Source: a virus (lineage: Duplodnaviria > Heunggongvirae > Uroviricota > Caudoviricetes). Taken from it: a DNA stretch of 64,000 nucleotides. Numbering within the stretch: the stretch's first letter is position 1; the number at the start of each line of letters is the position of its first letter. The stretch is from the IMG/VR virus record IMGVR_UViG_3300032167_005013, one strand, 5' to 3'. Shown piece after piece: positions 31,651 to 63,789 of the stretch. The position numbers and the translations under genes were made by a program. The notes below the pieces were generated by a model. That model was given only the letters and a program-made list of their open reading frames with translations. It ran no database searches and was not told the origin of the DNA.

Positions 31651-31673
31651 AATGACCGTAAAAAATACTGCTG

Positions 31674-31731
31674 AGAAAACGTACAGCAAATTATTAGCAA
31701 TGGACTTTTAATCTATCAGGCTTGTTTTCTG
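31674..31731 (+). ncRNA. stem-YACAGCAA RNA, copy A (contains a Lys-like anticodon hairpin)
   Basis: agaaaacg-TACAGCAA...atgga-cttttaa-tctat...tgttttct-g. Confidence 0.55.
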
Positions 31732-31772
31732 ACACAAAGCAGTTAAAATATGACTCAACCTGGCAAGGTTTA

Positions 31773-31829
31773 AGGAAACACACAGCAAAATTATGTTTAT
31801 TAATTATGATGCAATTAAACTGTTTCCTG
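31773..31829 (+). ncRNA. stem-YACAGCAA RNA, copy B
   Basis: aggaaaca-CACAGCAA...tgtttcct-g. Confidence 0.55.
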
Positions 31830-31862: not shown

Positions 31863-31937
31863 GGGCCTGTAATTCAAAGGTTAGAATGCACGACTCATAA
31901 TCCTGTCATCCTTGTTCGAGTCAAGGCGGGCCCACCA
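31863..31937 (+). tRNA. tRNA(CAT), Ile2 or Met
   Basis: gggcctg/cgggccc, ctCATaa loop, TTCGAGT, CCA. Confidence 0.85.
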
Positions 31938-32150
31938 ATAGAAGTGTTCTTTTTCATATTTGTCTTATATTCGTGCTCCCTTGAGGCACCATCTATAATG
32001 AGGAGAATGGTTGGGGTGATGGTATTCCCGCGAACCATAGGTGAGGAGACTAACGTATTTCCCTGCGGATAACAGATGCTGCAGGTCCTCATGAGACCTA
32101 CCTTAACAATTGTGATGGAACCCCCATCCTACTGAAATGGTCTCACTAAT

Positions 32151-32225
32151 GCGAGTGTAGCTCAGTTGGCAGAGCGTCAGTTTCCCAAACTGAAGGTTTC
32201 GCGGGTTCGAGTCCCGTCTCTCGCT
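32151..32225 (+). tRNA. tRNA-Gly(CCC)
   Basis: tcagt-ttCCCaa-actga; U discriminator. Confidence 0.9.
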
Positions 32226-32233
32226 CAAATAAC

Positions 32234-32318
32234 GGCGACATGGTGTAATGGTAGCCACGCAGGATTTAAGTCCCTGTGGCCCGAAGGGGCCGTGTCGGTT
32301 CGAGTCCGACTGTCGCTA
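32234..32318 (+). tRNA. tRNA-Leu(TAA)
   Basis: ttTAAgt loop, long variable arm. Confidence 0.85.
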
Positions 32319-32424
32319 CAAAAAATTACTTAATATAGGTACTCTTTTGAGTACATTATTATAACTTTTTATTTTAACGTACTATTTATTATTACAAATA
32401 AATTAAACTACATTAATAAAAAAT

Positions 32425-32514
32425 ATGAGAAATCTCCAACATACAAATTATTCGTATCCCAAATCTCTCAATTTTGGGCTCGATTATCGTATAGTGGAGG
32501 ATTTAGACGAATAG
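32425..32514 (+). CDS. putative leader peptide (29 aa)
   Basis: MRNLQHTNYSYPKSLNFGLDYRIVEDLDE followed by a terminator with competing pairing. Confidence 0.4.
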   Translation: MRNLQHTNYSYPKSLNFGLDYRIVEDLDE

Positions 32515-32549
32515 TAAATTTTTAGATTTATACTCATATTCATGATGCT

Positions 32550-32586
32550 ATCCTCCGGTTTAATAAAAAACTTGGAGGATTTTTTA
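32550..32586 (+). terminator. intrinsic terminator / attenuator
   Basis: atcctcc...ggaggat followed by a T run. Confidence 0.65.
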
Positions 32587-32628
32587 TTTTGGCACGGTAT
32601 TTGTATATATGTATTTTGAAAATATATA

Positions 32629-32701
32629 GAGGATGTAGTTCAGTTGGTAGAATATCACATTGTGGCTGTGAGGGCCATGGGTTCAAATCCCATCATTCTC
32701 C
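32629..32701 (+). tRNA. tRNA-His(GTG)
   Basis: tcaca-ttGTGgc-tgtga; preceded by a sigma54-like box at 32588. Confidence 0.9.
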
Positions 32702-32716
32702 CAAATTAAAATAAAT

Positions 32717-32811
32717 GGAGGCGTACCCAAGTGCTTGAAGGGGACGGACTTGAAATCCGTTAGGACGGTAACCACTCCGTCGCGTGGGTTGGAATCCCAC
32801 CGCCTCCTCCA
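32717..32811 (+). tRNA. tRNA-Ser(TGA)
   Basis: acgga-ctTGAaa-tccgt, long variable arm, CCA. Confidence 0.9.
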
Positions 32812-32846
32812 ATACAGTTGTAAGTAATCTGCGAAACTTTCAAAAA

Positions 32847-32928
32847 CGGAATGTGATGGAACTGGTAGACATGCGACACTTAGGATGTCGTGCCTCCGTG
32901 CGTAAGGGTTCGAGTCCCTTCATTCCGA
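32847..32928 (+). tRNA. tRNA-Leu(TAG)
   Basis: cgaca-ctTAGga-tgtcg. Confidence 0.9.
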
Positions 32929-32934
32929 CAATAT

Positions 32935-33010
32935 ATGGTAATAGCTCAGTTGACAGAGCGCTTGGTTTGGGACCAAGAGGCCGCAGGTTTGAGCCCTGCT
33001 TACCATACCA
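32935..33010 (+). tRNA. tRNA-Pro(TGG)
   Basis: cttgg-ttTGGga-ccaag, CCA. Confidence 0.9.
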
Positions 33011-33014
33011 AAAT

Positions 33015-33090
33015 GAGGTTGTAGCTCAGGTGGTAGAGCGGGAGCCTGAAGAGCTCCGCGTCGGTGGTTCAACTCCATCCAACCTCACCA
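33015..33090 (+). tRNA. tRNA-Phe(GAA)
   Basis: ggagc-ctGAAga-gctcc, CCA. Confidence 0.92.
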
Positions 33091-33165
33091 AAATAAAAAT
33101 ATTTTTGGTATTGTTAAAAACAATCACTATATTTGCAAATGAAAAGAAAACGGTAAACAAAATAT

Positions 33166-33241
33166 TCCCAAGTAGCTCAGTAGGTTTTAGAGCAACGGTC
33201 TGTTAAACCGTGGGTCGGTGGTTCGAATCCACCCTTGGGAG
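33166..33241 (+). tRNA. tRNA-Asn(GTT)
   Basis: acggt-ctGTTaa-accgt; G discriminator. Confidence 0.92.
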
Positions 33242-33310
33242 CGAGAAGAGGTTTTTCTTATTTTAGACTTCTGGTACAAAAAGAAAATAAGATGGTGCTC
33301 CAAGCAATAT

Positions 33311-33393
33311 GCCGAAATGGGACAGTGGTTGACTCCACCTGATTTGTAATCAGGCTCCGCAAGGACTCGTCAGTTCGAATCTGACTTTCGGCT
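33311..33393 (+). tRNA. tRNA-Thr(TGT) with a long variable arm
   Basis: cctga-ttTGTaa-tcagg; G1-C72/C2-G71; variable hairpin tcc-gcaa-gga. Confidence 0.8.
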
Positions 33394-33565
33394 CAAAAAC
33401 AAAACCTCAAGTTGGGGTGCCTCATAACATAGTCGTTCAAAATGGAGAACGGCCAAAGGGCAAGAATATAGATAGAGAGGCCTCACGTTCAAGCGGATAA
33501 GGCGTTTAACTTATCAACCTCTCACAAACGTGACTACGGAAATCGTTTGGGTTTTGTTTTATATT

Positions 33566-33727
33566 GGGTCAGCGCCGCAGTTGGAGAGGCGGGACAGACT
33601 GTAATAACAGAGTAAACTGTCACAAATCGCTGGTTGGAAATTGGTAGGAAGTATCGAGGTATCGTACACCTCTCCAATCACAATCTGTTGTCGTAAGGCT
33701 GAGTAGGTTCGATTCCTACCTGACCCA
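33566..33727 (+). tRNA. tRNA-Tyr(GTA) with a 78-nt anticodon-loop intron (~33605-33682)
   Basis: Removing the insert gives acaga-ctGTAaa-tctgt; acceptor gggtcag/ctgaccc; T arm intact. Confidence 0.85.
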
Positions 33728-33801
33728 CTATAAAATTAATAATGTAAAATATAGTATTTTTTAGTTCGATATACTATTTATATATAGAAAAACTAAAAAA
33801 T

Positions 33802-34587
33802 ATGATTACAAATGAAAGAAAAATATTTTACATAAATTTAATTAAAGATTCTTTTTCTTTACGAGAAGTTTGTTTAAAAGCGGGAATAGTTGTTACTACA
33901 GGCAATTATGATACTTTAAAAAGACTAATTAAAGAGGAGAATATTGATATAAGTCATTTTAAAAGACAAAATGTAAATAATCAAACTCATCATGAAATTG
34001 ATTATTTTTTACAAAAAGGAAGTAACATTGGGTCGTTTAGATTAAAAAATAAACTTTTTGATAATGGTTTAAAAGAACGTAAATGCGAATGTTGTGGAGG
34101 AACGGAATGGATGGGTAAACCTATTAATCTTCAACTACACCATATTAATGGAGATAATAAAGATAATAGATTGGAGAATCTTCAAATACTTTGCCCAAAT
34201 TGCCATTCTTATACAGAGAATTACTGCGGGAAAAACCAAAAAATCAATATAAAAGAAAAAGAAAGAATAATAAAAAAACGGACATATATAGATGTAAAAC
34301 TTTTACAAGAATGTTTAAATGAAACAAATGATTTAAATATTATTGGTGAAAAACTTAATAGAACACCAAAAACAATTAAAAAATATATAAAACAATATAA
34401 TTTAAAAATAGAAACAAAAGAAAAAAAACCAAAATATGATGTTAATTTAATGTTTCAATTAATGAAAAAATATAAAAATTATACCAAGGTTGGTGAAAAA
34501 ATGGGGATTAGTGATAATGCTGTGAAAAAACGTTTTATCAAACTTGGTTATCCATCTAATATTAAAGATTTATTAAATTCAATATAA
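33802..34587 (+). CDS. HNH endonuclease with C-terminal HTH-like repeats
   Basis: CECCG..LQLHHINGDNKDNRLENLQILCPNCH. Confidence 0.85.
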   Translation: MITNERKIFYINLIKDSFSLREVCLKAGIVVTTGNYDTLKRLIKEENIDISHFKRQNVNNQTHHEIDYFLQKGSNIGSFRLKNKLFDNGLKERKCECCGGTEWMGKPINLQLHHINGDNKDNRLENLQILCPNCHSYTENYCGKNQKINIKEKERIIKKRTYIDVKLLQECLNETNDLNIIGEKLNRTPKTIKKYIKQYNLKIETKEKKPKYDVNLMFQLMKKYKNYTKVGEKMGISDNAVKKRFIKLGYPSNIKDLLNSI

Positions 34588-34598
34588 TATATGGATTC

Positions 34599-34672
34599 GC
34601 TCTCAAAGCATTAAAGTGATGCACGAAACTTTTAATTTCGGGAAGAAGGGGCGGTACCTTCTGGGAGCACCA
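34599..34672 (+). tRNA. tRNA-Lys(TTT)
   Basis: cgaaa-ctTTTaa-tttcg, CCA; atypical T loop GGCGGTA. Confidence 0.85.
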
Positions 34673-34824
34673 AATTTTTAACATAAAAAGCATATCTAAT
34701 AGGAAAAATTGCCTCCTTAAGATATGAAACCATATACGGAAGTTGCGTTTGGCAGACAATAGGACCAACAACCTATCCAAAGTACACGGATACGGAAAGA
34801 CATTATGGAATGTTAAATAAATAT

Positions 34825-34907
34825 AGGAATGTAACTCAGTTGATAGAGGCTTCGCTGAGATAATATCAAAGGCCAAGAGGACGGTGGTTTGAGCCCATCC
34901 ATTCCTA
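34825..34907 (+). ncRNA. tRNA-like RNA with an expanded (18-nt) anticodon loop
   Basis: aggaatg/cattcct acceptor; D and T arms present. Confidence 0.55.
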
Positions 34908-34915
34908 CAAATTAT

Positions 34916-35047
34916 GTTAGTTTATTGCAGTATATTGGAGACTGCAGCGAATGTTATTTCGTCTTCGTTTGAGCAACAGACCGTTAGGGTGCACACAATG
35001 ACAACGGTGTTGCGAGAAGTATGGAGGTTCAATTCCTTCAACTATCA
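34916..35047 (+). ncRNA. tRNA-like RNA with a ~70-nt central expansion
   Basis: gttagtt/aactatc, tgcagt..actgca D-like arm, ggagg-TTCAATT-ccttc T arm. Confidence 0.45.
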
Positions 35048-35056
35048 CTAAGGTAT

Positions 35057-35203
35057 TGTGGCGTGGTGTAACGGTAGCACTAAGGATTTTTTAAGGCGTG
35101 GTTTCCGTAATAAACTATTGGTACGGGTCTTATGAAGTTAAGTAGAGCAAAACTACCCTGTATCGCGGTTCCTTCAGTCAGAGTTCGAATCTCTGCGCCA
35201 CAA
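35057..35203 (+). tRNA. tRNA-Gln(TTG) with a 76-nt insertion inside the anticodon (35091-35166)
   Basis: Removing the insert gives aagga-ttTTGgt-tcctt; tgtggcg/cgccaca acceptor and Gln-type D arm. Confidence 0.8.
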
Positions 35204-35338
35204 CTAAAATGAAATAAATTTGATAATATCAATATTTATATACTATATTTGCAACATAAAGGGATGGCTATATATGATGAATGATAGGAATAGCCTACAA
35301 CATATATGACACCTCCCTATTTTTAAAAAGAAAAATTA

Positions 35339-35421
35339 AGGAAACATACAGCAAAGTTTTTGGATAATAAAATTAATTAGACTTTAGTTTTTAGATAGTT
35401 CAATTCTGTCACTGTTTTCTG
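35339..35421 (+). ncRNA. stem-YACAGCAA RNA, copy C (contains a T-arm-like hairpin)
   Basis: aggaaaca-TACAGCAA...gatag-TTCAATT-ctgtc..tgttttct-g. Confidence 0.55.
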
Positions 35422-35477
35422 TCTTAATATAACCGTGGTTGCAGTCAAATCGGGATATAAATAGCGACTGCATATAT

Positions 35478-35550
35478 TGCGGCGTGTAGCAGTGGTAGCT
35501 AAGCGGTCTCATAAGCCGACGGTCGGTGGTTCGAATCCTCCCGCTCGCAA
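35478..35550 (+). tRNA. tRNA-Met(CAT), initiator-like but irregular
   Basis: ctCATaa loop, TTCGAAT T loop, bulged acceptor stem. Confidence 0.75.
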
Positions 35551-36242: not shown

Positions 36243-37280
36243 TTAATATGTTATAAGTTTCTCTACTTGTTCTATTGTAAGGTTTATCAAAATATTATAA
36301 ACATGTTCTTCCATTTTTCCACGATATTCTTCAGTTCTTTTAACGATTTGTTTTCTTTTACAATCAAGGTAAACTTTATAAGCTTCTTCTTCAGTATCAA
36401 ATTCATTTTTTTTACCTTCTAAAAAAGAGTCAATAAAATTTCTTTCCACATTCAACTTCCATTTACCTGTTTCTGAGTTATAAGTTGTTCCTGTATAGTA
36501 CCCGTTTTTAAGTTGTTGTTTTGGCCTTCTTGCAAAGATAATTCCAATCCTATTAGGAATAAACACAATATTATCAACAGTATAATTATTAATATTGTCA
36601 TCAAGATTTAAGATTAAATCATTAACAACCAAGATTTCATTGTAGGTATCTTGTGCTTTTTGATATTTTTCACAAAAGTCTTCTTGTTTTATATCAAATG
36701 TTTTATTTTTCAAATAGGCATAATTATTAAGGTTAGATTTAGCCCTGCTCATATATGATTTATAAGCGTTTTTTGCTGCTTTGTTATATTTGCCATTGAT
36801 TTTTGTTGTTTTTATTGGGGTCATTGTATTATACCCTTCTTGTAATGTTTTAAACACATCACAATAAAATGCTTCTCGTTCATCAAGAAGTTCTATAGGA
36901 CATATCTCCATTATATTATAATTCCATTTCCATGGGTCAACGTCCTTTCTTGCTTTTTCAATTTTACTTCCCGCATATGGATTATTTCCGAGAAATTGTT
37001 TGTATCTATTTCTCAAATTCTCGGTTTTTCCTATATATTTTTTATAATCATCTTCGGGGTTCACAAGCATGTATATTCCTGATGTCTCAGGTATTGTATT
37101 AATGATAGATTCTTTATAAGACTTGATACTACTTTCATTTATGATGTTTTTCTTTTTCTTCAACTCATTTTTCAATACTTTATTTTCTTCAGCATAAATC
37201 AAATTTTCATGTATTAATGCATTTTCTTTATCAGAAAATTCAGTACCATCTATAGTTTTATATTTTAAAATTATTTCCAT
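36243..37280 (-). CDS. GIY-YIG homing endonuclease
   Basis: SGIYMLVN..KYIGKTENLRNRYKQF..E..GYN; start reassigned to MEIILKYK. Confidence 0.8.
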   Translation of the reverse strand: MEIILKYKTIDGTEFSDKENALIHENLIYAEENKVLKNELKKKKNIINESSIKSYKESIINTIPETSGIYMLVNPEDDYKKYIGKTENLRNRYKQFLGNNPYAGSKIEKARKDVDPWKWNYNIMEICPIELLDEREAFYCDVFKTLQEGYNTMTPIKTTKINGKYNKAAKNAYKSYMSRAKSNLNNYAYLKNKTFDIKQEDFCEKYQKAQDTYNEILVVNDLILNLDDNINNYTVDNIVFIPNRIGIIFARRPKQQLKNGYYTGTTYNSETGKWKLNVERNFIDSFLEGKKNEFDTEEEAYKVYLDCKRKQIVKRTEEYRGKMEEHVYNILINLTIEQVEKLITY

Positions 37281-37287
37281 AAAAATA

Positions 37288-37722
37288 TTATATATCGAAG
37301 TATCTATACAGGAGTTCACATGTGAAGTCTCTATCGAAATTATTATCTTCGACAAGGTCATTTAGTTTCTCCACGGCCTTATAGATTTTGTTTATTCTTT
37401 TATCGGCATCGCATCCTTTAACCATCCAATTAAATTCTTCTATGAATTCATCAACATCCTTTTCTTCTTCAATTACGAAATCAGGTAAAATGAATTCGTC
37501 GTTATATGCTGATGTTGGTCCATCAACCGTTTCAACGTTGTTAAGTCCTCCTGTTATGGTAAAGGTATTGGGGTTTTCGTCAAAGCATTCAATGAAAAAC
37601 GTCATTGATTTATGATAGACATAGAAGAAATCGTCCATACCTTCAAAGTTATATTTATATAATTTCTTCAGTTTATCTTCCAATTGGAGATATAGTGGGT
37701 TTGTTTTAAAATCTGTTGTCAT
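37288..37722 (-). CDS. hypothetical protein
   Basis: 144 aa ORF. Confidence 0.65.
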   Translation of the reverse strand: MTTDFKTNPLYLQLEDKLKKLYKYNFEGMDDFFYVYHKSMTFFIECFDENPNTFTITGGLNNVETVDGPTSAYNDEFILPDFVIEEEKDVDEFIEEFNWMVKGCDADKRINKIYKAVEKLNDLVEDNNFDRDFTCELLYRYFDI

Positions 37723-44482: not shown

Positions 44483-46033
44483 TTATTCCTCATCATCAGC
44501 ATACCCCTCAAGCATGTCCCCCGTGATGACACCCTTATCCATATCCTTCTTTTCCTGTTCAAAATAGAGGTCACTCTTAATCTTGAACGCCTCCTGAATA
44601 GGGTCATTTTCAATTCTGATGACAAGTCCTTCTCTCCAAACCTTATTCTTGCAAAGAGGCTCCTTAAGGTCCATACCGAACTTCTCCGAGTCAGTCTTCA
44701 TCCTGCGAACAAAGTTCTCATGCCAATGTTCCTCAGTTGAAAGGTCGGGGTAGATATCCTTTGCAGGGCCATGATACATCAGCTGCAGAGGGAAAATCTT
44801 ATCTTCAAGGTCAGGGTAAGTCTCAATCAGCCACTTGGTATATCCAATTACATCTGTGATTTCAAAATCCTCATACTTACCGGTTGCGGAGTTGAACTCA
44901 GTCACACGATAAATCATGAGCTTGTTCTCGCCCTTCTTACAACCATAGTCATATACCTTACCACCACGGGTAATGATGCCTGTTTCTGAATTAGGTACAT
45001 ATCCAAGAATTTCTCCGTAGATAATCATTCCATGGTCAACCTTACCCTTAAGAATCTCATACCACTGTGGGTAAACTGCATCAAGGCCTGTCGGATAATT
45101 GTCACCGGTCTTACCAACCTTTGAAGTACTGCTCTTAGGAGCCTCGACATAAGCATTTCCTGAACGAATGACATTTCGTGAACTGCAGACATCCTCCCAA
45201 TCAATATCCCATGTTCTCCACTTATCAGGCATCAACATGAATGCCTTAAGTATTAACTTATTAAGGAAATTGAAACGAGTCTTTGGGAGACGTGGGGTTC
45301 TCGTCTGAATATTACCGAAGATTATTGATGTTCCGTCCAACTTAAGAGAGATATCAACGACATCCTCAGGCTTGATTTTCCAAGCATTCCTCTCAAGGCT
45401 CTGTGTGTCGTAGTGAAACTGCCACTGTCCCTCGACAATCCTGTCAATCTTGGCAATGGTCTTCTTATGTCTCTTATAATGCTTTCCCTTTCCTGCTGAG
45501 TGCTTTCTCTCCTTGATTCGAGGAACATATGGCTTTGAGAAGAGGACACCATCAACGGTATCAAATTCAGTCCCAATATAATCCTCAAGATTCAACTTCT
45601 CAACACCCGGAAATGCGAGTGCCATTGCTCTCTGAGAGAAGAGGAAACCAAATGAAGGCACTCCGCCAAGACGAATCATCTTCACACGCCCATACTTATT
45701 GAAGAATCCTACCTTCCTCTTGGCTTCGTCCTTCTTATCCTCGCTCATCAGTTTTTCAACCTCCTCGTAGTTGACATTAAGTTGTCTTTCCCCAATTTCA
45801 AAAAGGTTGTTCTTTGAAAGGAAATCTGTGTTAAGTTCTGATTCGTTTGCTGCATAGAAAAGGATATCACCCTCGTGGCATTCGTCCTTTCTGACAACCA
45901 TTGTAAAGTTCTCAACAACAGTTACTCCGATTGAATCATATCCCGGAATATCCTTAACCTCTCCAATCTTCACGATTGTGGTACAATATTCCTGCTTAAA
46001 CTTTTCTGATTTTGTAAAAATGTTCTTTGCCAT
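44483..46033 (-). CDS. ATP-dependent RNA ligase (DRB0094/Rnl2-like) with an N-terminal OB-like domain
   Basis: KLDGTS (motif I), SSRN, YGEILG (III), EGLVIR (IV), FKIKS (V). Confidence 0.85.
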   Translation of the reverse strand: MAKNIFTKSEKFKQEYCTTIVKIGEVKDIPGYDSIGVTVVENFTMVVRKDECHEGDILFYAANESELNTDFLSKNNLFEIGERQLNVNYEEVEKLMSEDKKDEAKRKVGFFNKYGRVKMIRLGGVPSFGFLFSQRAMALAFPGVEKLNLEDYIGTEFDTVDGVLFSKPYVPRIKERKHSAGKGKHYKRHKKTIAKIDRIVEGQWQFHYDTQSLERNAWKIKPEDVVDISLKLDGTSIIFGNIQTRTPRLPKTRFNFLNKLILKAFMLMPDKWRTWDIDWEDVCSSRNVIRSGNAYVEAPKSSTSKVGKTGDNYPTGLDAVYPQWYEILKGKVDHGMIIYGEILGYVPNSETGIITRGGKVYDYGCKKGENKLMIYRVTEFNSATGKYEDFEITDVIGYTKWLIETYPDLEDKIFPLQLMYHGPAKDIYPDLSTEEHWHENFVRRMKTDSEKFGMDLKEPLCKNKVWREGLVIRIENDPIQEAFKIKSDLYFEQEKKDMDKGVITGDMLEGYADDEE

Positions 46034-48161: not shown

Positions 48162-48554
48162 TCAAATGTTTCTCTCGTCATATTTTATAATTCTTGTTGG
48201 TAAATTCTTTTCTTTCGCAATATCAATCATATGTTTCGTCCCACGACTTTCGCCATCCCAAAATGCAATCAGTGCATCGGCATTCTCAGCCATTTCAAGA
48301 TTTCGTTTATATCCTGCGGACTTTCCATGCTTCTCCCAATCTGCAGGAAATTCCATGATGTTCAAACCATTTTCATTGGCATATTTCTCTCCAAGGAAAT
48401 CGGCCCCACGTGCTTTTCCTGAAACAATATATATCTGATGTGTTTTTCGTTTCTCGGATATGAGATTATTAACCTTTTCTTTAAGAAGATTATAATCATT
48501 AAAATCCCTTCCTCCTGCGATGATTATTCTGAATATTGGCTTTTTAATTCCCAT
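48162..48554 (-). CDS. SLOG-family protein (DUF2493/YspA-like)
   Basis: IIAGGRDF, VSGKARGAD, PADWEKHGKSAGYKRN, AFWDGESRGT. Confidence 0.85.
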   Translation of the reverse strand: MGIKKPIFRIIIAGGRDFNDYNLLKEKVNNLISEKRKTHQIYIVSGKARGADFLGEKYANENGLNIMEFPADWEKHGKSAGYKRNLEMAENADALIAFWDGESRGTKHMIDIAKEKNLPTRIIKYDERNI

Positions 48555-48588
48555 ATCTCAACTATATTTTTGTATAAAAATACAAATT

Positions 48589-49773
48589 TTATTCCAAATC
48601 AACAAATTTTTGTTTTATTTTGATAGAATAAAACAACCCTATTGAGTAAAAAACAAATAATATCACAAAAAGAGCGTTATAGGATAGTCCCATTATATTG
48701 ATAATGAAATTGGATAATTGATTACCCGACAATCCAGCAAAAGCCCATGCTGATAATGTAAGCCCATGCAAGGTACTAATATTGCTCATCCCAAAATGAC
48801 TTTGAATGAGTGTTGGTAGTGTACTGAACCCACCTCCATATCCTGCATTGACAACACATAACATCATAGGAATTACAAGAGGTAAAAATGTTCCAAATAC
48901 CAATGTTAATGAAGAAGATAAAAATATTACAACATAAACCCATGCTTTATTTTTCATGAAATCAGATGCTGTTGAATAACCAAATCTTCCTACCGTATTG
49001 AAAAATGCTGTTAATGTGGCAAGTATTCCAATATTTGTGAGACCTGAGTATAAACCAATGTTTTTTTCAAATGAAATCAATGCTAAACCACATGTAATAT
49101 TAAGGTAAAAAACAAACCATATTTGACGATATGTTTTATTTTTAAAAATTTTTAGTGTCTCCCTAAAATGTGTTTTCACAACCGGTTCCACCCACCCATC
49201 AGGCTTTTTTATACAATACGTTGCCAAACCCATAAGAATTATACTAACGCCTGATATTATACCTAATGTCCATTCAACTCCCATATTGAAATTACACCAT
49301 TCAATGAACGGGGAAAATATGACTTTAGATAGGCCAAACCCCGATATTGCAATTCCTGTTGCAAGTCCTTTATGTTCTGAAAACCAAAGCATTAATGTTT
49401 TTACCGGGCTCAGATAACCAATACCCAAGCCAATGCCCATAAGACAACCGTATGATAATATAAGACCTATTCTACTTTTCAAATATATTGCTATAATTGA
49501 CAATACAAGACCTGATACAAAACATATAGTTGATAATAGTGAAGATTTTTTGACATTTTTTTCAACAAAACTCCCACCAAAAGCCGCTGACATACCTAAA
49601 AAGAAAATTGCCAACGAAAAACAAATCTCAATTGAAGCAACGCTACAGCCTATTGATGTTGCAATCTCATCTTTCAATAATGACCAACAATATACACTCC
49701 CAATACAAGAGTGTATTAATAAAGCAGGTATAGCACCTCTAAACCATTTATTATTTAATATTTCTTTCCCCAT
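48589..49773 (-). CDS. MFS transporter, oxalate/formate antiporter-like
   Basis: ~12 TM; IGSVYCWS, GIGLGIGYLSPVKTLMLWF, GYGGGF. Confidence 0.85.
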   Translation of the reverse strand: MGKEILNNKWFRGAIPALLIHSCIGSVYCWSLLKDEIATSIGCSVASIEICFSLAIFFLGMSAAFGGSFVEKNVKKSSLLSTICFVSGLVLSIIAIYLKSRIGLILSYGCLMGIGLGIGYLSPVKTLMLWFSEHKGLATGIAISGFGLSKVIFSPFIEWCNFNMGVEWTLGIISGVSIILMGLATYCIKKPDGWVEPVVKTHFRETLKIFKNKTYRQIWFVFYLNITCGLALISFEKNIGLYSGLTNIGILATLTAFFNTVGRFGYSTASDFMKNKAWVYVVIFLSSSLTLVFGTFLPLVIPMMLCVVNAGYGGGFSTLPTLIQSHFGMSNISTLHGLTLSAWAFAGLSGNQLSNFIINIMGLSYNALFVILFVFYSIGLFYSIKIKQKFVDLE

Positions 49774-50390
49774 AGTATAAATCCATAAACACAGTTAATT
49801 GTCCAAAACACATATTGCGCCACCATGAACCAATTTTCTATTGACACCCACATTGCAATGCATATTATATCTTGAATAAACCATAATATCCAATTTTCCT
49901 TATATCTTAACATCATCAAAATCTGTGCCAAAATACCTAAGACAGTAGTGATGCTGTCAAACATAGGATGTGAATCCCCTAAATTATCAAGAATAGCCCA
50001 TCCCATGATGGTTAATCCGACTACAACTCCAAATACCCCAAGTATTGAATGGAAATCCAATGATTTTGTTTTTACAAGTTTTTCATCATCAAGGTTTTTC
50101 AACCATATGAAAATACCGGTAATCATTGTAAGAAAATAGAAAAGATTTTCAATGATTTTTCCATGAAGACCCTCCTGTACGCAAATTATCGTATATGTAC
50201 TCATCTGTAGAAAAGACCAAAAGTAGTAAGTCATTTTCTTTTCACTACACTGTACAACGGATATCATGCCAGCAATACCACTTACAAATGATAAAAAACT
50301 GTCCTTAGTGACTATATATACAATCACCTGAGACAACAAACCACATGCAAGCAGCATCGAACCAAAGTCAATTTTCCTTCTTATCTCCAC
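49755..50390 (-). CDS. pnuC: PnuC-family vitamin transporter
   Basis: DSITTVLGILAQILMMLRYKENWILW..YGFILW. Confidence 0.85.
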   Translation of the reverse strand: MEIRRKIDFGSMLLACGLLSQVIVYIVTKDSFLSFVSGIAGMISVVQCSEKKMTYYFWSFLQMSTYTIICVQEGLHGKIIENLFYFLTMITGIFIWLKNLDDEKLVKTKSLDFHSILGVFGVVVGLTIMGWAILDNLGDSHPMFDSITTVLGILAQILMMLRYKENWILWFIQDIICIAMWVSIENWFMVAQYVFWTINCVYGFILWGKKY

Positions 50391-50606
50391 TTCTCAAAAT
50401 CTTCCGGATATTCAACATAAACCCATGCCCAAACATCGTCAATGATAAAATCAATATCGGGTTCGGGAAAATTATAAAAGGCTTTTCTTCCTTTTTCCTC
50501 AGAGTAAATACCATAATAGAACCAACTGCCGTCACGAGTAAAAAGAACCCGCTGCCCCTCATAAGGAACTTCTTCCTCAGTCAGGAACCATGTCAAATGT
50601 GTAACA

Positions 50607-51692
50607 CTATTCATCGTTAAATTTTTTAATAAATTTCTCTGCTTTGTTTCGTTTTTCCATGTATTTTTTACGTCGGAATTCATTGGTTTTTTCAATGTTT
50701 TCCCTTATCTTGTCATTATGCTTCCTGCATTTCTCATAGGTATTTAATTCTCTTGCCCAATCTTCAATCGAAGCCGCAGAAATATCTTTCTTTATTGCCT
50801 TGTACCCATCATAAGGTGAAAGAATGTCGACAGTATCATCAATGATATATTCCCAATCCCATCCGTTATTGTTTGAAAATTTTATATTGAACCAATTATC
50901 TGTTTCGGATTCAACATTACCGTTCGCACGTGGATTTACAGCAAGTTCCTCAAGTGTATTTCCTATCCAACCCTGACCATTCCTATGATAACCGTTCATT
51001 GTAAGGAAATCAATAGACGATTTATCATTGAATTTATAACCTGTTTTCAATGTCAAGGCCTGTGAACTATTAAAACCGAAATCTCTAAAACCCGCTGTCT
51101 GCTGATGTCCTGCCCTTACATGTAATCCCCATCCATTCTGAGGAAGCATATTATATACTGCAGTTGCCTTAAATGAATTAAAACTACCGCCACCAAAATA
51201 AACATATGAGTCCTGTGGTTTATGAATATTGACCGATTCCAAAAGGATTCCTCCGGCCACACCCGCAATTCCATTATATGATGAAGCAGTACCCTTTTCT
51301 ACCCTAACTGTCTGCATCGAAGACAAAAGGTCAGGACTGTTAGCAAAATAAGCACCATAGTCCTCAGCCTCATTCCATGGGCAACCATCAAGAGATACAT
51401 TTATACGGGTTTGGTCAAGTCCTCTGATTCTAAAGTAACCGTAACCAAATTCTGTACCATTGTCATTCAATGAAATAATTGATGGCATCTTACTAAAAAC
51501 ATTTGATGGTTCCTGTCCGTAATTGGTTTCAGTAAGCGTTTTAATATCAACTACCGAACTTACTGTTGTTGAACTACTATAAAATGAAGATACGACAATT
51601 TCGTCAAGCGCCACAACCGTAGTATCTGATTCCTGTGCAAACGTAATAATCGCAATAAATGCAGAAATAAATGCCAAAATAAATTTTCTCAT
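50607..51692 (-). pseudogene. TonB-dependent receptor N-terminal part fused to an unrelated phage ORF
   Basis: Signal peptide, LDEIVVS box, plug motif FRIRGLDQTRINVSLDG. The barrel stops at ~50890 and the tail resembles 47198-47611. Confidence 0.75.
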
Positions 51693-51856
51693 ATTTTTTT
51701 TAATTTAAAATGTTCGATTGCAAATATACAAATATTATGCCAAACTAACAAAAAATATGAAAATTATTTGAACAGAGTTTGTCGTTTACTTGTCTTATAA
51801 CTATTTATAGTTATAAGACAAGTGTTTATATTAATAAAAATAACAATATATATTAT

Positions 51857-52447
51857 ATGGCAACCGGAGCAACTAACGGTATTCCTACCGCAAGAGAATT
51901 AGAAAATACAGGCGCATTTTCTTTCAATACAACAAACGCAAATGTTTTATCATATGTTCCGAGTTTGGATATGTGTCCAACAAGACAAACAATCTTGGCT
52001 GCTATAAAAAGTGGTTATGGGGCGGAAATTTCAACAACCTATAGTAATGGGCGACTTGTGCCTTACAATGCAATACAATGGCAGAAAAATGTTGGTAAAC
52101 TAACCATATCCTTGCTAAATACGCCTCCGTATAGTCTCAATGATTATATGATGATACCAATCAAGTATTCAACAAATACTTCTTACCTACCATCAAAATA
52201 CAGCGATTTAAATTCTTTATCGAATTTGAGTGGTGCATTGATAAATACGTTTACTAACACCAGTGTGACAATATATTCTCCTTCATGGAGTGCATATACA
52301 CAAAATATTAGAATTTATTATTCATGGGAAACATTTTCCACCCAGTCCATTTATCTTTACGGAAACGTAACGTCAGCTCAATTATCTTCTTTAAAAAATG
52401 GAACTAACATTACTATAACCGGTTATTGGACAACAAATATTGGCTAA
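51857..52447 (+). CDS. T/S/N-rich protein, possibly virion-associated
   Basis: Amino-acid composition; TATTTATA motif upstream. Confidence 0.5.
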   Translation: MATGATNGIPTARELENTGAFSFNTTNANVLSYVPSLDMCPTRQTILAAIKSGYGAEISTTYSNGRLVPYNAIQWQKNVGKLTISLLNTPPYSLNDYMMIPIKYSTNTSYLPSKYSDLNSLSNLSGALINTFTNTSVTIYSPSWSAYTQNIRIYYSWETFSTQSIYLYGNVTSAQLSSLKNGTNITITGYWTTNIG

Positions 52448-52525
52448 ATTAAAAAACACATTTTTACTTACTTATTATATACTTACACACGAAAAAACGG
52501 GATGTGTCGTGAGACACATCCCGTT

Positions 52526-52993
52526 TTATAATTTCCAATATTCAATATCAATGTCCATATCCTTAAAAACTGCTTCAACCATGCTGCAGATTACCTGCCA
52601 ATCAGCACCACCCCTATCAGAACTCATCTTCCAAGGAAATGCAACTGATTTGATTCCGTTTTCGGCGCAATAGACACTCAATTTTTCCAACGCAACATAT
52701 ATTCCCTCATAGTTGGTATATCGTTTTCTATCATACCCATATTTTTCCTGGCCACAAAGGTTTGCTACCAATCTGTTATCATCACCTCCGGGGTTTGTTT
52801 TCACAATTTGGCACATACCCAATTTCATTAAACCTTTCTTACACGCCTTATGATATTGTTCAGCAACACGTGGATACTTTTCCTTAATTGCCCTTGCAAC
52901 CCCACTTCCAAATCCATCGGATGCATTTGTTTGATGAGCAATTATATCTGCTTCTGAATCCAATAAACTGCCGTTATAAATATTCTCCTTCAT
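52526..52993 (-). CDS. Macro-domain protein
   Basis: DIIAHQTN..GFGSGVARAIKEKYP, VANLCGQ, AFPWKMSSDRGGADW. Confidence 0.85.
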   Translation of the reverse strand: MKENIYNGSLLDSEADIIAHQTNASDGFGSGVARAIKEKYPRVAEQYHKACKKGLMKLGMCQIVKTNPGGDDNRLVANLCGQEKYGYDRKRYTNYEGIYVALEKLSVYCAENGIKSVAFPWKMSSDRGGADWQVICSMVEAVFKDMDIDIEYWKL

Positions 52994-53057
52994 ATTCTTA
53001 AATTTTTAATCATATCGCAAATATACAAAAAAGGTTTGGATTTGCCAAACCTTTTAA

Positions 53058-54008
53058 CTAATCTTTCTTCTCAGCAAAATCCTTAGGGAGATACCCTCTA
53101 TTAATGAATTCATCCATCAATGGTACAGCCAATTCTGCAGCCTGTGGATGGGGTTTTCCTGTTGTACCAAGAGCTCTCAAATTGAAGAAATTTTTCCAAT
53201 CACTAATAAATGCAGTTTTAATAAGAGGTGAAGAAATTGCACAAGGTAAAACAGTTCTTGCCTCTTCAGCCTTCCATCCAAACTGATTTGTTAGCGTACA
53301 ATACGACCATTCACATGCTTTCAATGCAAACATCCAAGCACACACATCATCCATTGGTCCTACCCCATATTCAAAATCAATTACGCATCTACAAAAATCA
53401 TTTATACTATAATCCTTAAGAGTATTGATTTCATCTATTCTATCAAGCATCCATACAGGAATGATATACTTAATAGAACCACCACCAAACTTCTCTTTTG
53501 TGAATAGCACATATCTTGTACTCTCCCTATTGAACGATGCAACTCTGTGGCGTAGGAACTCTTCACCTGTAAACCTGTCAATTTGAAACCTTACCTGATA
53601 TCTTCTCTCATGAAACTCAGTGGGTTCACACCAATATTTCAAGTCATCCATCCAACCATTCTCAAAAAGAACTCGGAGATTGGTGGTTACATACATATAA
53701 TCATTGTCTGATGTACACTTAGAATATTTATTATGTTGATATTTGTCAAGGACACAACCAAGATATTCAATATCAATATTATTCACATAATCATAATCAA
53801 GTGGCGCTTTAAGATATACTGTACCATGTTCTAGTGGTGCCCCATGATTAGATTTCATCAATCCATTGCAAAACTTCTCTGCAGTTCCCGGAGCCATCTT
53901 ATCCTGAGAACCATAACATATTCTTCCCGGGAGTTCCGCTGCTTTATACATACCCTCAAGACCCGGCTCCTGTTCAATAATTTCAAATCCTGCTACTAAA
54001 AATTCCAT
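53058..54008 (-). CDS. thyX: FAD-dependent thymidylate synthase
   Basis: GRICYGS, HGAPLEH, EFLRHRVASFNRESTRY, EARTVLP, FFNLR..HPQ. Confidence 0.92.
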   Translation of the reverse strand: MEFLVAGFEIIEQEPGLEGMYKAAELPGRICYGSQDKMAPGTAEKFCNGLMKSNHGAPLEHGTVYLKAPLDYDYVNNIDIEYLGCVLDKYQHNKYSKCTSDNDYMYVTTNLRVLFENGWMDDLKYWCEPTEFHERRYQVRFQIDRFTGEEFLRHRVASFNRESTRYVLFTKEKFGGGSIKYIIPVWMLDRIDEINTLKDYSINDFCRCVIDFEYGVGPMDDVCAWMFALKACEWSYCTLTNQFGWKAEEARTVLPCAISSPLIKTAFISDWKNFFNLRALGTTGKPHPQAAELAVPLMDEFINRGYLPKDFAEKKD

Positions 54009-54113
54009 ATCCTGTTTTCTTTTTTATTTTATCTTTTGACCCAAACACAATGGGAACAATCAATATCAGCGCAAAACAAATTGTACAACCGAATAATATT
54101 AAACCGTCTATCA

Positions 54114-54986
54114 TCATTTTATAAACCAATCTGTTTTTTCTAATTTAATGTGTTCGTGGTAATAAAGCATTGCGTTTTTCTCAATATATTTCAATGCTAT
54201 CTTGGATTTTCGTTCAATAAAGGTAAACATACGGTCCAAACCATCTTCATCAAAATCAAAGCCCCAATATTGCAAAACAAATAAAATAGCATGAGTTCTA
54301 TTTCTTGCTTCAGGCAAAATTTTATATAATGCAGTATAATATCTTTGAAATGGTTCGGAACTTTTCAAGGCCTCAATAAAAGTATCTCTATCATAACTCC
54401 CTTTCTCCCTAACATAATTTTCAATATGAGGTGTTGTTTCAGAAATTATAGCCTTCATTTCTTTTTCATGGCAAGCATATAGTGCCTGCACAAATTGGTA
54501 TGCAATATCATTATTCTTATAATCGTTAAGAAAAACAACGCATTGGTTATACCATAAAGGAAGAGGATTTACCAAATTTTTACCGCCCTTCTCATTGTAT
54601 TTCGCCTGATTCAATATCACATAACCATGATTCAACTCATGAACAGCAATGTGATATATTGTCTGTTCCAACTTATCATAACTTTGTTTCAATATATCAT
54701 TTCTTGATATAAAGAATTTAATTCCCACAGTATCATCATTAACACCATTAAATGTCCCTGATGTCGGACGCATATCTATCATCATGTCCCGATAATTCAC
54801 ATCATCTTCCGAATATTCAATAGTAATAATATATTTTTTAAATTGACAGTCTGTTTGTGTGTCGAAAACGCCATTTCTATGATGTGATTTAATCATAGAA
54901 ACAGCTTTTTCTGCAATTTCTTTCGCTAAATTATATTGATTGGAAAACTCCCCTAACGCTTCGTTGATAACCTCCAATTGTGTCAT
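54114..54986 (-). CDS. HExxH zincin-motif protein
   Basis: AVHELNHGY; N-terminal INE motif. Confidence 0.5.
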   Translation of the reverse strand: MTQLEVINEALGEFSNQYNLAKEIAEKAVSMIKSHHRNGVFDTQTDCQFKKYIITIEYSEDDVNYRDMMIDMRPTSGTFNGVNDDTVGIKFFISRNDILKQSYDKLEQTIYHIAVHELNHGYVILNQAKYNEKGGKNLVNPLPLWYNQCVVFLNDYKNNDIAYQFVQALYACHEKEMKAIISETTPHIENYVREKGSYDRDTFIEALKSSEPFQRYYTALYKILPEARNRTHAILFVLQYWGFDFDEDGLDRMFTFIERKSKIALKYIEKNAMLYYHEHIKLEKTDWFIK

Positions 54987-55021
54987 ATCATTTAATTTTG
55001 AGCAAAAATATGGAAAAAATA

Positions 55022-55768
55022 TTATTTTTCCAAATCAATTTCTTCTCTAAACATAATTTTCCTATACTCGACAATCCCATCAGTCACCACTATATAGTAA
55101 TTAGGAAGAAGGTCGTTAACATAAATCCCCTCTTCATTGCCTAATTTCATAAATTCATCAAATTTTTCAGCCCAAACAACCGTATGTCCCACAACCTGTT
55201 TGTACCCCTCAAGTTTACTCTTGCTTAATGCATTTGGCCTTATCCATATCGGTGAATTTGAAATAGTATCCCCCTCTTCACTGTAACCCACATGACAGTT
55301 CCAAGCAAGAAGTCTTGTATCGAACTCAGGTCCGTTGATTTCTTCTAATGTATCCACGTTACATAGTTCTTCAAACCACCATTTTGAAACACCTGCATGT
55401 GAATAAAGAACACCATCTTCAATGTGAAGAATCTTCATTTTTCCTGATTTTAGTGCATCTACCAGTAACTCATGAGCATTAAAGTAAGTGACCTGATTAT
55501 ACCCGCTGTATTTTTCTCTATAATCATAATAATGAAAATCATGATTTCCTAACAGCAATATAACCCTATCCTCGCCCAATTCTTTTTGGAGTTTCAATAT
55601 CTCTTTGAAATTAAAAATCTGCCTTGCCGGATGATATTTCTTTTCATGGGAATCAAAATAGTCCCCTAAAAAAATAAATTTATCCGCATCAGGATTCTCA
55701 TCAACTATTTTCCTCCATATTGCACGGCCATGTATATCACCTATAGCAACTATCTTACTCATAATCAA
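55022..55768 (-). CDS. calcineurin-like metallophosphoesterase
   Basis: GDIHG, GDYFD, GNHD, SHAG, VGHT. Confidence 0.9.
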   Translation of the reverse strand: MIMSKIVAIGDIHGRAIWRKIVDENPDADKFIFLGDYFDSHEKKYHPARQIFNFKEILKLQKELGEDRVILLLGNHDFHYYDYREKYSGYNQVTYFNAHELLVDALKSGKMKILHIEDGVLYSHAGVSKWWFEELCNVDTLEEINGPEFDTRLLAWNCHVGYSEEGDTISNSPIWIRPNALSKSKLEGYKQVVGHTVVWAEKFDEFMKLGNEEGIYVNDLLPNYYIVVTDGIVEYRKIMFREEIDLEK

Positions 55769-62589: not shown

Positions 62590-63789
62590 TTAGAAGGCAT
62601 TGCCTCGGTCATCCACAGTTAGGTTCTCCATAAGCGTATATTCGGTGCTACGGACACCTATTATTCTTTCTCCCTCTAATAAGATATTCATCGCTGCATT
62701 TATATCCCTGTCATGATGTTCGCCACATTGTGGACATGTCCATTCCCTGTCACTTAACTTCAAATCATGTTTCTTATATCCACAAACTGAACATGTTTTA
62801 CTGCTTGGATAGAATCTATCAACAAATATTACTTGTTTTCCGTTATTGAATGCTTTATCAACAAGTATTGATTTAAATCTATAAAATCCTACTTCTTGTA
62901 TCGCTTTCGCTAACTTATGATTCTTTAACATTCCACTAACATTTAAGTCTTCCATGAAGATTACATCATAATATATAAGCAATTCATTTACTACACTATG
63001 AATATAATTCTCTTTCTGATTGTTTAACTTCTCAAATGCCTTTGCAAGTTTGATTCTTGCTTTATTTCTGTTATTAGAACCTTTTTGTTTCTTTGATAAT
63101 TGATGTTGGAGTTTTGCTATCTTCTGTTCTTGTAATTTATAGAAATGTTTATTTTCAAACACTTCACCATCACTTGTAATTACAAAATCTTTAACTCCTA
63201 AGTCAATACCAACATGTTCATCAGTTAATTTGAATTTAACAACTTCTTCATTTGGTAACTCAATTAAGATAGATAAGAAGAAATTACCACTCTTGGTTTT
63301 CGATAAGGTAGCACTTCTTATTCCATCACGATATTGTCTGAGTCTGTTGTGATTCAAATCAGAACATCTGAAACGAATATCTTTTAAAGGTTGTGTCAAC
63401 GTTATTTTTCTTGTTTCAAATGTATTCTTCTTTGAAATCGCTTCAAGTGGGAATAACGCTGACTGTTTATCTTTTTTACTTTTGAATTTTGGGAAACCAT
63501 TATGTTGTTTAAAGAACTTCTCATAAGCAGATAGCATCTGCCTTATTGACTGTTTCATTATCTTTGTGTTTTCTTCTTTCAACCATGAGTATTGTTCATC
63601 CTTCAATAGTTCATTATGAAAATACTTTGATAAATCAGTTAAACCTAATGATTTCTTATTTTCAGTATATTCTTGTTGTTTACGAGCAAGTGTTTGATTA
63701 TAAACAAAACGGTAACACCCCAATACTTTATTCAGTTTCAGTTCTTGCTCCTTATTTGGATATAATCTTATTTTAATTGCTCTTAACAT
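62590..63789 (-). mobile_element. tnpB: Solo TnpB (IS200/IS605/IS607 family RNA-guided nuclease)
   Basis: KIRLYPNKEQ HTH, GIDLGVKD (RuvC-I), MEDLNV (II), PSSKTCSVCG..CPQCG..DRDINAA (Zn/III); no tnpA immediately adjacent. Confidence 0.9.

Follow-up and report, generated by a model that had tools for sequence, protein, structure and literature searches.

A phage tRNA-Gln gene split inside its anticodon by a 76-nt insert, a candidate protein-dependent intron

In bacteria, group I introns interrupt the anticodon loops of tRNAs such as the cyanobacterial tRNA-Leu(UAA) and tRNA-fMet and the tRNA-Ile of Azoarcus. To our knowledge, no tRNA splicing other than that of self-splicing group I introns has been described in bacteria or phages. 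Breakage and repair of a tRNA is known from phage T4, where Pnk and Rnl1 reseal the anticodon loop after cleavage by PrrC.

Two further systems come from giant phages and gut phages. The Lak megaphages carry “enigmatic” tRNA introns in Tyr, Thr, Phe and Gly genes; their excision points were derived from alleles with and without the insert, no mechanism was offered and removal was not demonstrated (Devoto et al. 2019, Nat Microbiol, PMC6784885). Our literature search found no later paper explaining the Lak tRNA introns. The second system comprises the theta ribozymes, minimal HDV-like ribozymes that abut tRNAs in gut phages of Bacteroidota, and the phages that carry them are 140-fold enriched for an RNA ligase of the DRB0094 family (Kienbeck et al. 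2024, PMC10879173).

Here we describe a tRNA-Gln(UUG) gene that is interrupted inside its anticodon. The DNA analysed, called the window below, is a 64-kb stretch of an IMG/VR virus entry of 80.7 kb that was judged to be 23% complete. It has a GC content of about 35%, genetic code table 11 looks adequate for it, and the phage that carries the split gene is a giant gut or rumen phage. Giant gut phages repeatedly show small, non-self-splicing inserts in tRNA anticodon loops, and the present locus is a clean case, since uninterrupted alleles define its junction to the base and genes for candidate repair enzymes lie nearby. The features discussed are listed in Table 1.

Table 1. Coordinates of the features discussed (positions refer to the window unless a related record is named)
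Feature	Position	Strand	Description
tRNA cluster	31863-35549	+	
tRNA-Tyr(GTA), split	33566-33728	+	ARAGORN intron mode and sequence
Tyr insert	33605-33682		78 nt; site 36/37 or 37/38
Homing-endonuclease gene	33802-34587	+	HNH, free-standing
tRNA-Lys(UUU)-like gene	34599-34675		encoded CCA; non-canonical T loop GGCGGTA
tRNA shell 1	34825-34907		17-nt anticodon loop; Rfam tRNA 34.4 bits
tRNA shell 2	34915-35048		about 70 nt replacing the anticodon arm
tRNA-Gln(UUG), split	35057-35203	+	RF00005 match across the whole span
5' exon	35057-35090	+	acceptor strand, D arm, anticodon-stem 5' strand, loop nt 32-35 (UUUU)
Gln insert	35091-35166	+	76 nt
Helix P1 of the insert (candidate)	35092-35097 with 35127-35132		6 bp, encloses P3; from descriptor scan
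Helix P2 of the insert (predicted)	35098-35104 with 35150-35156		7 bp
Hairpin P3 of the insert (predicted)	35105-35109 with 35122-35126		CCGTA/TACGG, 5 bp, 12-nt loop
3' exon	35167-35203	+	loop nt 36-38 (GGU), anticodon-stem 3' strand, variable loop, T arm, acceptor strand, discriminator A
Homing-endonuclease gene	36243-37361	-	GIY-YIG + HNH, free-standing
ATP-dependent RNA ligase	44483-46033	-	phrog_968 “RNA ligase”, E 3.7e-31, full length
Calcineurin-like metallophosphoesterase	55022-55768	-	PF00149, E 4e-12
Stop-codon anticodon tRNA, L022	566-638		
Stop-codon anticodon tRNA, L024	3459-3531	-	
Stop-codon anticodon tRNAs, L040	3136-3217; 3646-3730		

The split gene and its junction

The gene had been recognised in a sequence-only reading as a tRNA-Gln(UUG) with a 76-nt insert, and this identification holds. 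With permissive filters, the Rfam tRNA model RF00005 matches the locus from end to end (47.5 bits, E 3.5e-8), ARAGORN in intron mode also reports a 76-nt interruption, and the joined exons give a canonical 72-nt cloverleaf that ARAGORN calls Gln(ttg). CCA is not encoded at the 3' end. ARAGORN placed the junction one base further left and thereby called the gene Arg(TCG). Sliding the junction produces Arg(GCG), Arg(TCG), Gln(TTG) or Lys(TTT), so that the anticodon of the split gene is unreadable from its own sequence alone.

Six uninterrupted homologues served as the reference for the junction (L003, L039, L022, L025, L024 and L040). An exact 19-mer from the D and anticodon arms led to uninterrupted alleles on two viral contigs (L002 and L003) and on a contig binned with an Acutalibacteraceae MAG (L039), while L022, L024, L025 and L040 were reached via the phage's methyltransferase and via a GenBank gut-phage scaffold. 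The U1-A72 pair and the UUG anticodon are present in all six, and U1-A72 is found in the split gene as well. The anticodon loop reads TTTTGGT in L003, L022 and L040; each of the other three has one loop change outside the anticodon (CTTTGGT in L039, TTTTGGA in L025, TTTTGAT in L024). Because the homologues' TTTTGGT loop is reproduced only by deleting 35091-35166, the insert is placed between anticodon nucleotides 35 and 36, precisely where the earlier reading had put it. The joined exons are 81% identical to L003, including 38 identical nucleotides across the D and anticodon arms, and the L003 differences in the acceptor and T stems are paired changes only. Across the site, identity is 38/38 nt for L002/L003 and 37/38 nt for L039.

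With a slash marking each boundary, the junctions read AAGGATTTT/TTAAGG...ATCGC/GGTTCC, with neither target-site duplication nor terminal inverted repeats, on which grounds a transposon or MITE was ruled out. The 76 nt contain no ORF. Such a clean insertion, with no duplication, inverted ends or ORF, is intron-like rather than transposon-like. Since the site lies inside the anticodon, the gene can be of use only after exact removal of the insert; such removal would leave the spliced junction ...CUAAGGAUUUU/GGUUCCUUCAG... (GGAUUUU/GGUUCC).

We tentatively favour the reading that the insert is a non-self-splicing intron, which would be removed by nucleases and whose exons would be rejoined by the phage's own RNA-repair enzymes. 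The exons argue for this, as they are intact and specify a canonical tRNA-Gln with a loop identical to that of the uninterrupted alleles. The same reading is suggested by the gene's being the sole Gln gene within the 80.7-kb record, while Gln(UUG) is intact in every related phage tRNA cluster examined (G002, G003, G004, L003 and L040). Codon usage in the window (CAA and CAG at about 12 per 1000 each) gives no argument for or against a tRNA-Gln. Additionally, inserts in the anticodon region recur both in this phage group, where other tRNA genes of the same phage and of G003 and G004 are interrupted there, and in Lak phages. A further interrupted tRNA, with an insert of about 125 nt in the anticodon region, lies beside the intact Gln allele in L003 (8887-9083, Rfam 35.6 bits) and is also present in L002.

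The intact exons could instead reflect recency, if DNA had only lately landed in the anticodon and the tRNA gene were dead or dying. That the insert is an orphan in all collections searched, that it gives no fold signal and that other aberrant tRNA-like genes occur in the cluster would all fit such a history, and the two flanking homing endonucleases could drive sloppy repair. We nevertheless consider it rather unlikely, as precise insertion into a 7-nt anticodon loop, without duplication or deletion, recurs in the phage group as well as in Lak phages, every related cluster examined has conserved Gln(UUG), and the helix arrangement that starts at the junction (described below) is unlikely by chance. 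The same homing-endonuclease genes, situated on either side of the block of interrupted tRNA genes, might be what spreads the inserts. SegB likewise flanks the tRNA cluster of T4.

Searches with the insert and its predicted fold

The insert has no recognisable relatives in the collections searched. On its own it matched none of the 4227 Rfam families at E<=10, whether tRNA, group I intron, small ribozyme or Y RNA, and Rfam over the whole cluster at E<=5 returned no HDV-type or intron match. No homologue was found when the 2.5-kb region was compared by blastn with 50,697 phage records (GenBank phages, the Lak-B genomes among them), when IMG/VR was searched with an exact 26-mer and with a gapped stem pattern, by BLAST in five related records, or by blastn-short against the phage's own genome and the other loci compared. 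In JGI metagenomes, a gapped exon pattern produced only a chance match in non-tRNA sequence (L027).

These searches, together with the size of the insert, bear on the classical tRNA introns. Both the archaeal/eukaryal-type bulge-helix-bulge intron, removed by a splicing endonuclease, and the self-splicing group I intron are generally known in anticodon loops, non-canonical positions included. Either would be a highly improbable explanation here. The bulge-helix-bulge criterion was two 3-nt bulges separated by a 4-bp helix, plus the endonuclease; no such motif can be drawn at either junction, where only a 3-bp GAU/AUC helix with irregular loops is allowed, and the endonuclease domain PF01974, EndA and RtcB are absent from a record that is 23% complete. 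A group I intron was rejected on its length, 76 nt falling far below the approximately 200 nt or more of a P3-P9 core, and on the lack of any Rfam intron match.

Folding of the insert gives a minimum free energy of -14.6 kcal/mol, which is equal to that of shuffles (z = -0.13). Within the ensemble, the hairpin that the sequence-only reading had drawn from ccgta and tacgg (P3) is present and dominant, with a pair probability of about 0.9. Its second hairpin, gtag-agcaaaa-ctac (35142-56), is drawable at a pair probability of only about 0.03, and its CTAC strand is used instead in the 7-bp helix with 35098-104 (P2), which closes the minimum-energy fold with a pair probability of 0.94. A further helix, P1, is drawn in a descriptor scan and is not favoured in nested folding. 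P1 and P2 together make a pseudoknot, and nested folding yields them as mutually exclusive helix sets.

The arrangement of these helices resembles that of HDV-like ribozymes. On the 5' side, P1, P2 and P3 follow one another without a gap, and on the 3' side the strand of P3 is joined immediately to that of P1; this order and contiguity correspond to the nested double pseudoknot of the HDV type, for which the modelled fold is a candidate only. The foot of P1 lies 1 nt inside the 5' junction, and a 2-bp P1.1 is drawable at the canonical HDV place. C35148, located 2 nt before the 3' strand of P2 (4 nt, CAAA, if P2 is read as 5 bp), would be in the position of the HDV catalytic C, in which it may have a putative role. 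Of 3000 dinucleotide shuffles, 5 reached 18 bp in the relaxed descriptor and none also started at insert nucleotide 1-2, the descriptor ranges having been widened after the sequence had been seen. In the real window, descriptor matches of at least 18 bp have 18 starts in 128 kb of single strand (both strands counted), or about one per 7 kb; with the P1.1 rule, the insert is the only match of at least 17 bp on the + strand of the 64-kb window. A second HDV-like descriptor match, in shell 2, violates the J4/2 rule and does not rise above background.

Cleavage by HDV-like ribozymes takes place at the foot of P1. If the insert were a divergent HDV-like (theta-type) ribozyme, it could make the 5' cut at the P1 foot, at or 1 nt from the 5' junction, and leave a 2',3'-cyclic phosphate on the 5' exon; after a second cut, the phosphoesterase would heal the ends and the ligase would seal them. 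The contiguous helices in HDV order, the drawable P1.1, the C ahead of the P2 3' strand and the shuffle and window counts above favour this, as does the setting, in that theta ribozymes adjoin gut-phage tRNAs and co-occur with DRB0094-type ligases (PMC10879173), to which the ligase in the window is distantly related. Several observations make ribozyme-initiated splicing unlikely all the same. The theta/HDV signatures, namely the G1.U wobble, a 3-bp P3 and a C-rich L3 of 7-8 nt, are absent from the insert, where the first pair of P1 is U-A (or U.U) and L3 is the 12-nt AUAAACUAUUGG. None of the HDV-type models in Rfam gives a match, and scanning the window for the canonical theta core gave only chance-level matches. 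P1 begins 1 nt inside the junction, the 3' cut is left unexplained, the descriptor was relaxed post hoc, and none of the other inserts, that of tRNA-Tyr included, fits it.

A tRNA-like identity for the insert was also considered. RF00005 does not match the insert alone, and no discriminator or CCA follows the acceptor-like strand, as the insert ends in ...CUGUAUCGC, 33 nt past the 3' strand of P1. P1 and P3 can be stacked into 11 bp with a continuous 3' strand, starting at insert nucleotide 2 and closed by a loop of 12 nt, at 5 kcal/mol above the minimum. This modelled stack would be the insert's nearest approach to the top half of a tRNA as a possible substrate of RNase P.

The sequence-only reading had also proposed that the Gln insert and the 78-nt insert of the tRNA-Tyr gene in the same cluster belong to one class of small introns, likening the agcaaaa loop of the former to an agtaaa loop of the latter. 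What survives of this is descriptive: both are small and ORF-less, and neither has an Rfam family of its own (for the Tyr insert, in the whole-cluster scan at E<=5). Similarity between the two is not significant, the local alignment score being reached by 384 of 1000 shuffles and the global score by 102 of 1000. The likeness of the loops lapses with the Gln hairpin concerned, which is the minor alternative fold noted above (about 0.03). The structures compared do not agree either, since the Tyr insert is predicted to form a small 5' hairpin followed by a closed domain of two hairpins, the last of which adjoins the closing stem as a T arm would, whereas in the Gln insert the closing stem runs straight into the first hairpin; the HDV-like order is absent from Tyr. 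Judged by their sequences, the two would thus form one class only in a loose descriptive sense.

Candidate processing enzymes and tRNA-like neighbours

The window encodes an ATP-dependent RNA ligase and a calcineurin-like metallophosphoesterase, and their presence is part of the case for an intron. The ligase has the PF21189/PHA02142 OB domain and a weak N-terminal match to TIGR02306 (DRB0094 family), and the nucleotidyltransferase motifs K(L/I/V)xGTS, EGxxxR and KxK are conserved among its homologues, which occur in Lak phages and mycobacteriophages; a search with this single protein revealed no close relatives. Such ATP-dependent RNA ligases join 3'-OH to 5'-phosphate ends, and by its sequence this one is a candidate exon-sealing enzyme. 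The phosphoesterase, which also matches weakly the phosphoesterase part of the Pnkp-like phrog_8238 “RNA ligase”, is a candidate 3'-end healing enzyme that could act on cyclic-phosphate ends. The record contains no EndA, RtcB, Pnk-type kinase or Tpt1, which is weak evidence as it is 23% complete.

Among related records, the ligase is found in all three with split tRNAs (the present one, G003 and G004) and in two of the six tRNA-bearing records without split tRNAs, these two (G014 and G015) being nearly identical. The association is not significant (one-sided Fisher test, approximately 0.12, calculated by hand on a very small sample), and the distribution is consistent with an enzyme that is needed but not sufficient. 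Repair of tRNAs explains the presence of phage RNA ligases equally well.

For the protein-dependent intron that we favour, the following route can be proposed, in which we infer transcription, excision, the enzymes used and the chemistry of the ends. The Gln gene would be transcribed within a run of closely spaced tRNA-type genes, and the insert would fold as a compact domain at approximately 35092-35159, so that the 5' junction would adjoin the base of its first helix and a single-stranded tail of 10 nt would contain the 3' junction. Host or phage endonucleases would then cut both junctions; endonucleases are invoked because the insert is too small and too unlike known self-splicing introns for complete self-removal. 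The cloverleaf would hold the tRNA halves together while the phage RNA-repair enzymes heal and seal the anticodon loop, in the manner of T4 Rnl1 and Pnk. Against such an intron stand the lack of any homologue of the insert, and hence of conservation, a fold no better than that of shuffles and the failure to find a cutting enzyme in the record.

The genes directly upstream point in another direction. Two tRNA shells with remodelled anticodon arms precede the Gln gene, the three being spaced by about 8 nt each; no anticodon can be assigned to either shell, and simple deletion does not restore a tRNA. For this block, the shells favour a reading in which the Gln transcript stays unspliced, its tRNA body acting as a scaffold that supplies processing signals and stability and its 76-nt domain being a payload or an anticodon mask. 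Such a chimeric RNA might serve as a decoy for tRNA-targeting host enzymes or as a small regulatory RNA. A hairpin-NN-ACAGCAAU module, which recurs inside tRNA bodies of relatives and of the phage's own genome and is also free-standing in the window, fits this reading. So do the ARAGORN anticodon calls for the interrupted genes of G003 and G004, which are those of intact genes elsewhere in the genome, and the fact that splicing machinery was not found in the record.

On the other hand, both halves of the anticodon loop and both strands of the anticodon stem are preserved to the base in the Gln gene, and a scaffold needs neither. The supposed payload has neither a homologue nor a significant fold. 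Neither the ACAGCA module nor the Ro60-binding motif GNCGAA occurs in it, and with no TROVE gene in the record a Y-RNA/Ro60 module was rejected; “UAGAGCAAA” in the insert resembles the genome's ACAGCAAA module at 8 of 9 bases, which a rough hand estimate for an A-rich 76-mer put within chance. In addition, the G003 and G004 “twin” genes are dissimilar in sequence, which leaves their shared anticodon calls uncertain. An unspliced chimeric RNA is therefore possible, although on balance we doubt it.

As the grafted hairpin-ACAGCAAU module shows, the RNAs that these phages frame in tRNA bodies include some other than tRNAs. A hairpin of 7 bp, with NN-ACAGCAAT after it, occurs inside tRNA-like genes of L022 (3123-3243) and L023 (639-767, - strand) and in the present record beyond the end of the window, where ARAGORN reports an intron-containing Ser(gct) gene; copies of the hairpin show covariation (GTTTTCA/TGGAAAC versus GTTTATC/GATAAAC). 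In the window, three elements (31671-31731, 31770-31829 and 35338-35420) each have a 7-bp stem (AGRAAAC/GTTTYCT) closing 50-70 nt that begin with NN-ACAGCAAA, and the first of them contains a tRNA-Lys-like anticodon arm, GGACTTTTAATC. The word AAACNNACAGCA occurs three times against an expectation of 0.16.

Other features of the region were noted in passing. In MT835539, a phage scaffold from the human gut, the tRNA-Lys-like gene shows about 80% conservation. Between tRNA-Thr and tRNA-Tyr, about 160 nt (33400-33560) are closed by a long-range stem, AAAACAAAACC ... GGTTTTGTTTT; this stretch, which has no Rfam match, is possibly a structured RNA. Among the relatives there are tRNAs whose anticodons read stop codons (TCA in G003 and G004, TTA in MT835539; positions in Table 1), which hints at stop-codon recoding in the phage group. 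Further downstream, a nucleotide/NAD-related block on the - strand (48162-55768) encodes SLOG/YspA-like, MFS transporter, PnuC NMN transporter, TonB-receptor plug fragment, macro-domain and ThyX proteins along with the metallophosphoesterase, and a TnpB (IS605 OrfB) gene lies at 62590-63789.

Comparison with known systems

The consequences depend on what becomes of the transcript. Splicing of this tRNA would point to an undescribed RNA-processing route in bacteria or phages. If a ribozyme made the first cut, the theta-ribozyme story would extend from trimming the ends of tRNAs to splitting them, and one gene could in principle give Gln, Arg or Lys anticodons according to the position of the junction; we know of no organism in which tRNA splicing is initiated by a ribozyme and completed by heal-and-seal repair. 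The pseudoknot at the 5' junction is a testable lead in this respect. Were the RNA to remain unspliced, it would strengthen the case that tRNA bodies serve these phages as carriers of other small RNAs.

Compared with the bacterial group I introns, the Gln insert shares an interrupted anticodon loop, the interruption sometimes lying within the anticodon itself. Those introns are self-splicing, approximately 200-300 nt long and built around a conserved core, whereas the insert has 76 nt and neither the core nor an Rfam match. The likeness to T4 repair is one of chemistry, as a phage ATP-dependent RNA ligase and an end-healing enzyme are proposed to join the exons. In T4, however, a host defence nuclease breaks a normal tRNA-Lys from which nothing is removed, and no kinase was found in the present record.

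With the theta ribozymes, the locus has in common phage tRNA genes, hosts of the Bacteroidota type and a DRB0094-related ligase, as well as, in the modelled fold, the order and contiguity of P1, P2, P3 and P1.1, the C ahead of the P2 3' strand and a predicted cut at the boundary of tRNA and insert. Theta ribozymes differ in sitting after the tRNA's 3' end rather than inside the anticodon, and their G1.U, ACC/GGT P3 and UCCNCGY L3 are absent from the insert, in which the predicted P3 has 5 bp and L3 has 12 nt.

The insert fits the Lak introns, which are likewise short, ORF-less anticodon-loop inserts that Rfam does not classify and for which insert-free alleles exist; Lak phages infect gut Bacteroidota, and the ligase of the present record has a homologue in them. 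A tRNA-like element with a TTCGAAT-type loop is present in the Thr and Tyr inserts of Lak phages and missing from the Gln insert, which differs further in its host gene and in its site. By its sequence, the locus would fall under the Lak-type definition of a short, ORF-less insert in a phage tRNA anticodon loop, Rfam-unclassified and with insert-free alleles known. To these barely described inserts it adds a new tRNA, tRNA-Gln, and a new site, between nucleotides 35 and 36 of the anticodon.
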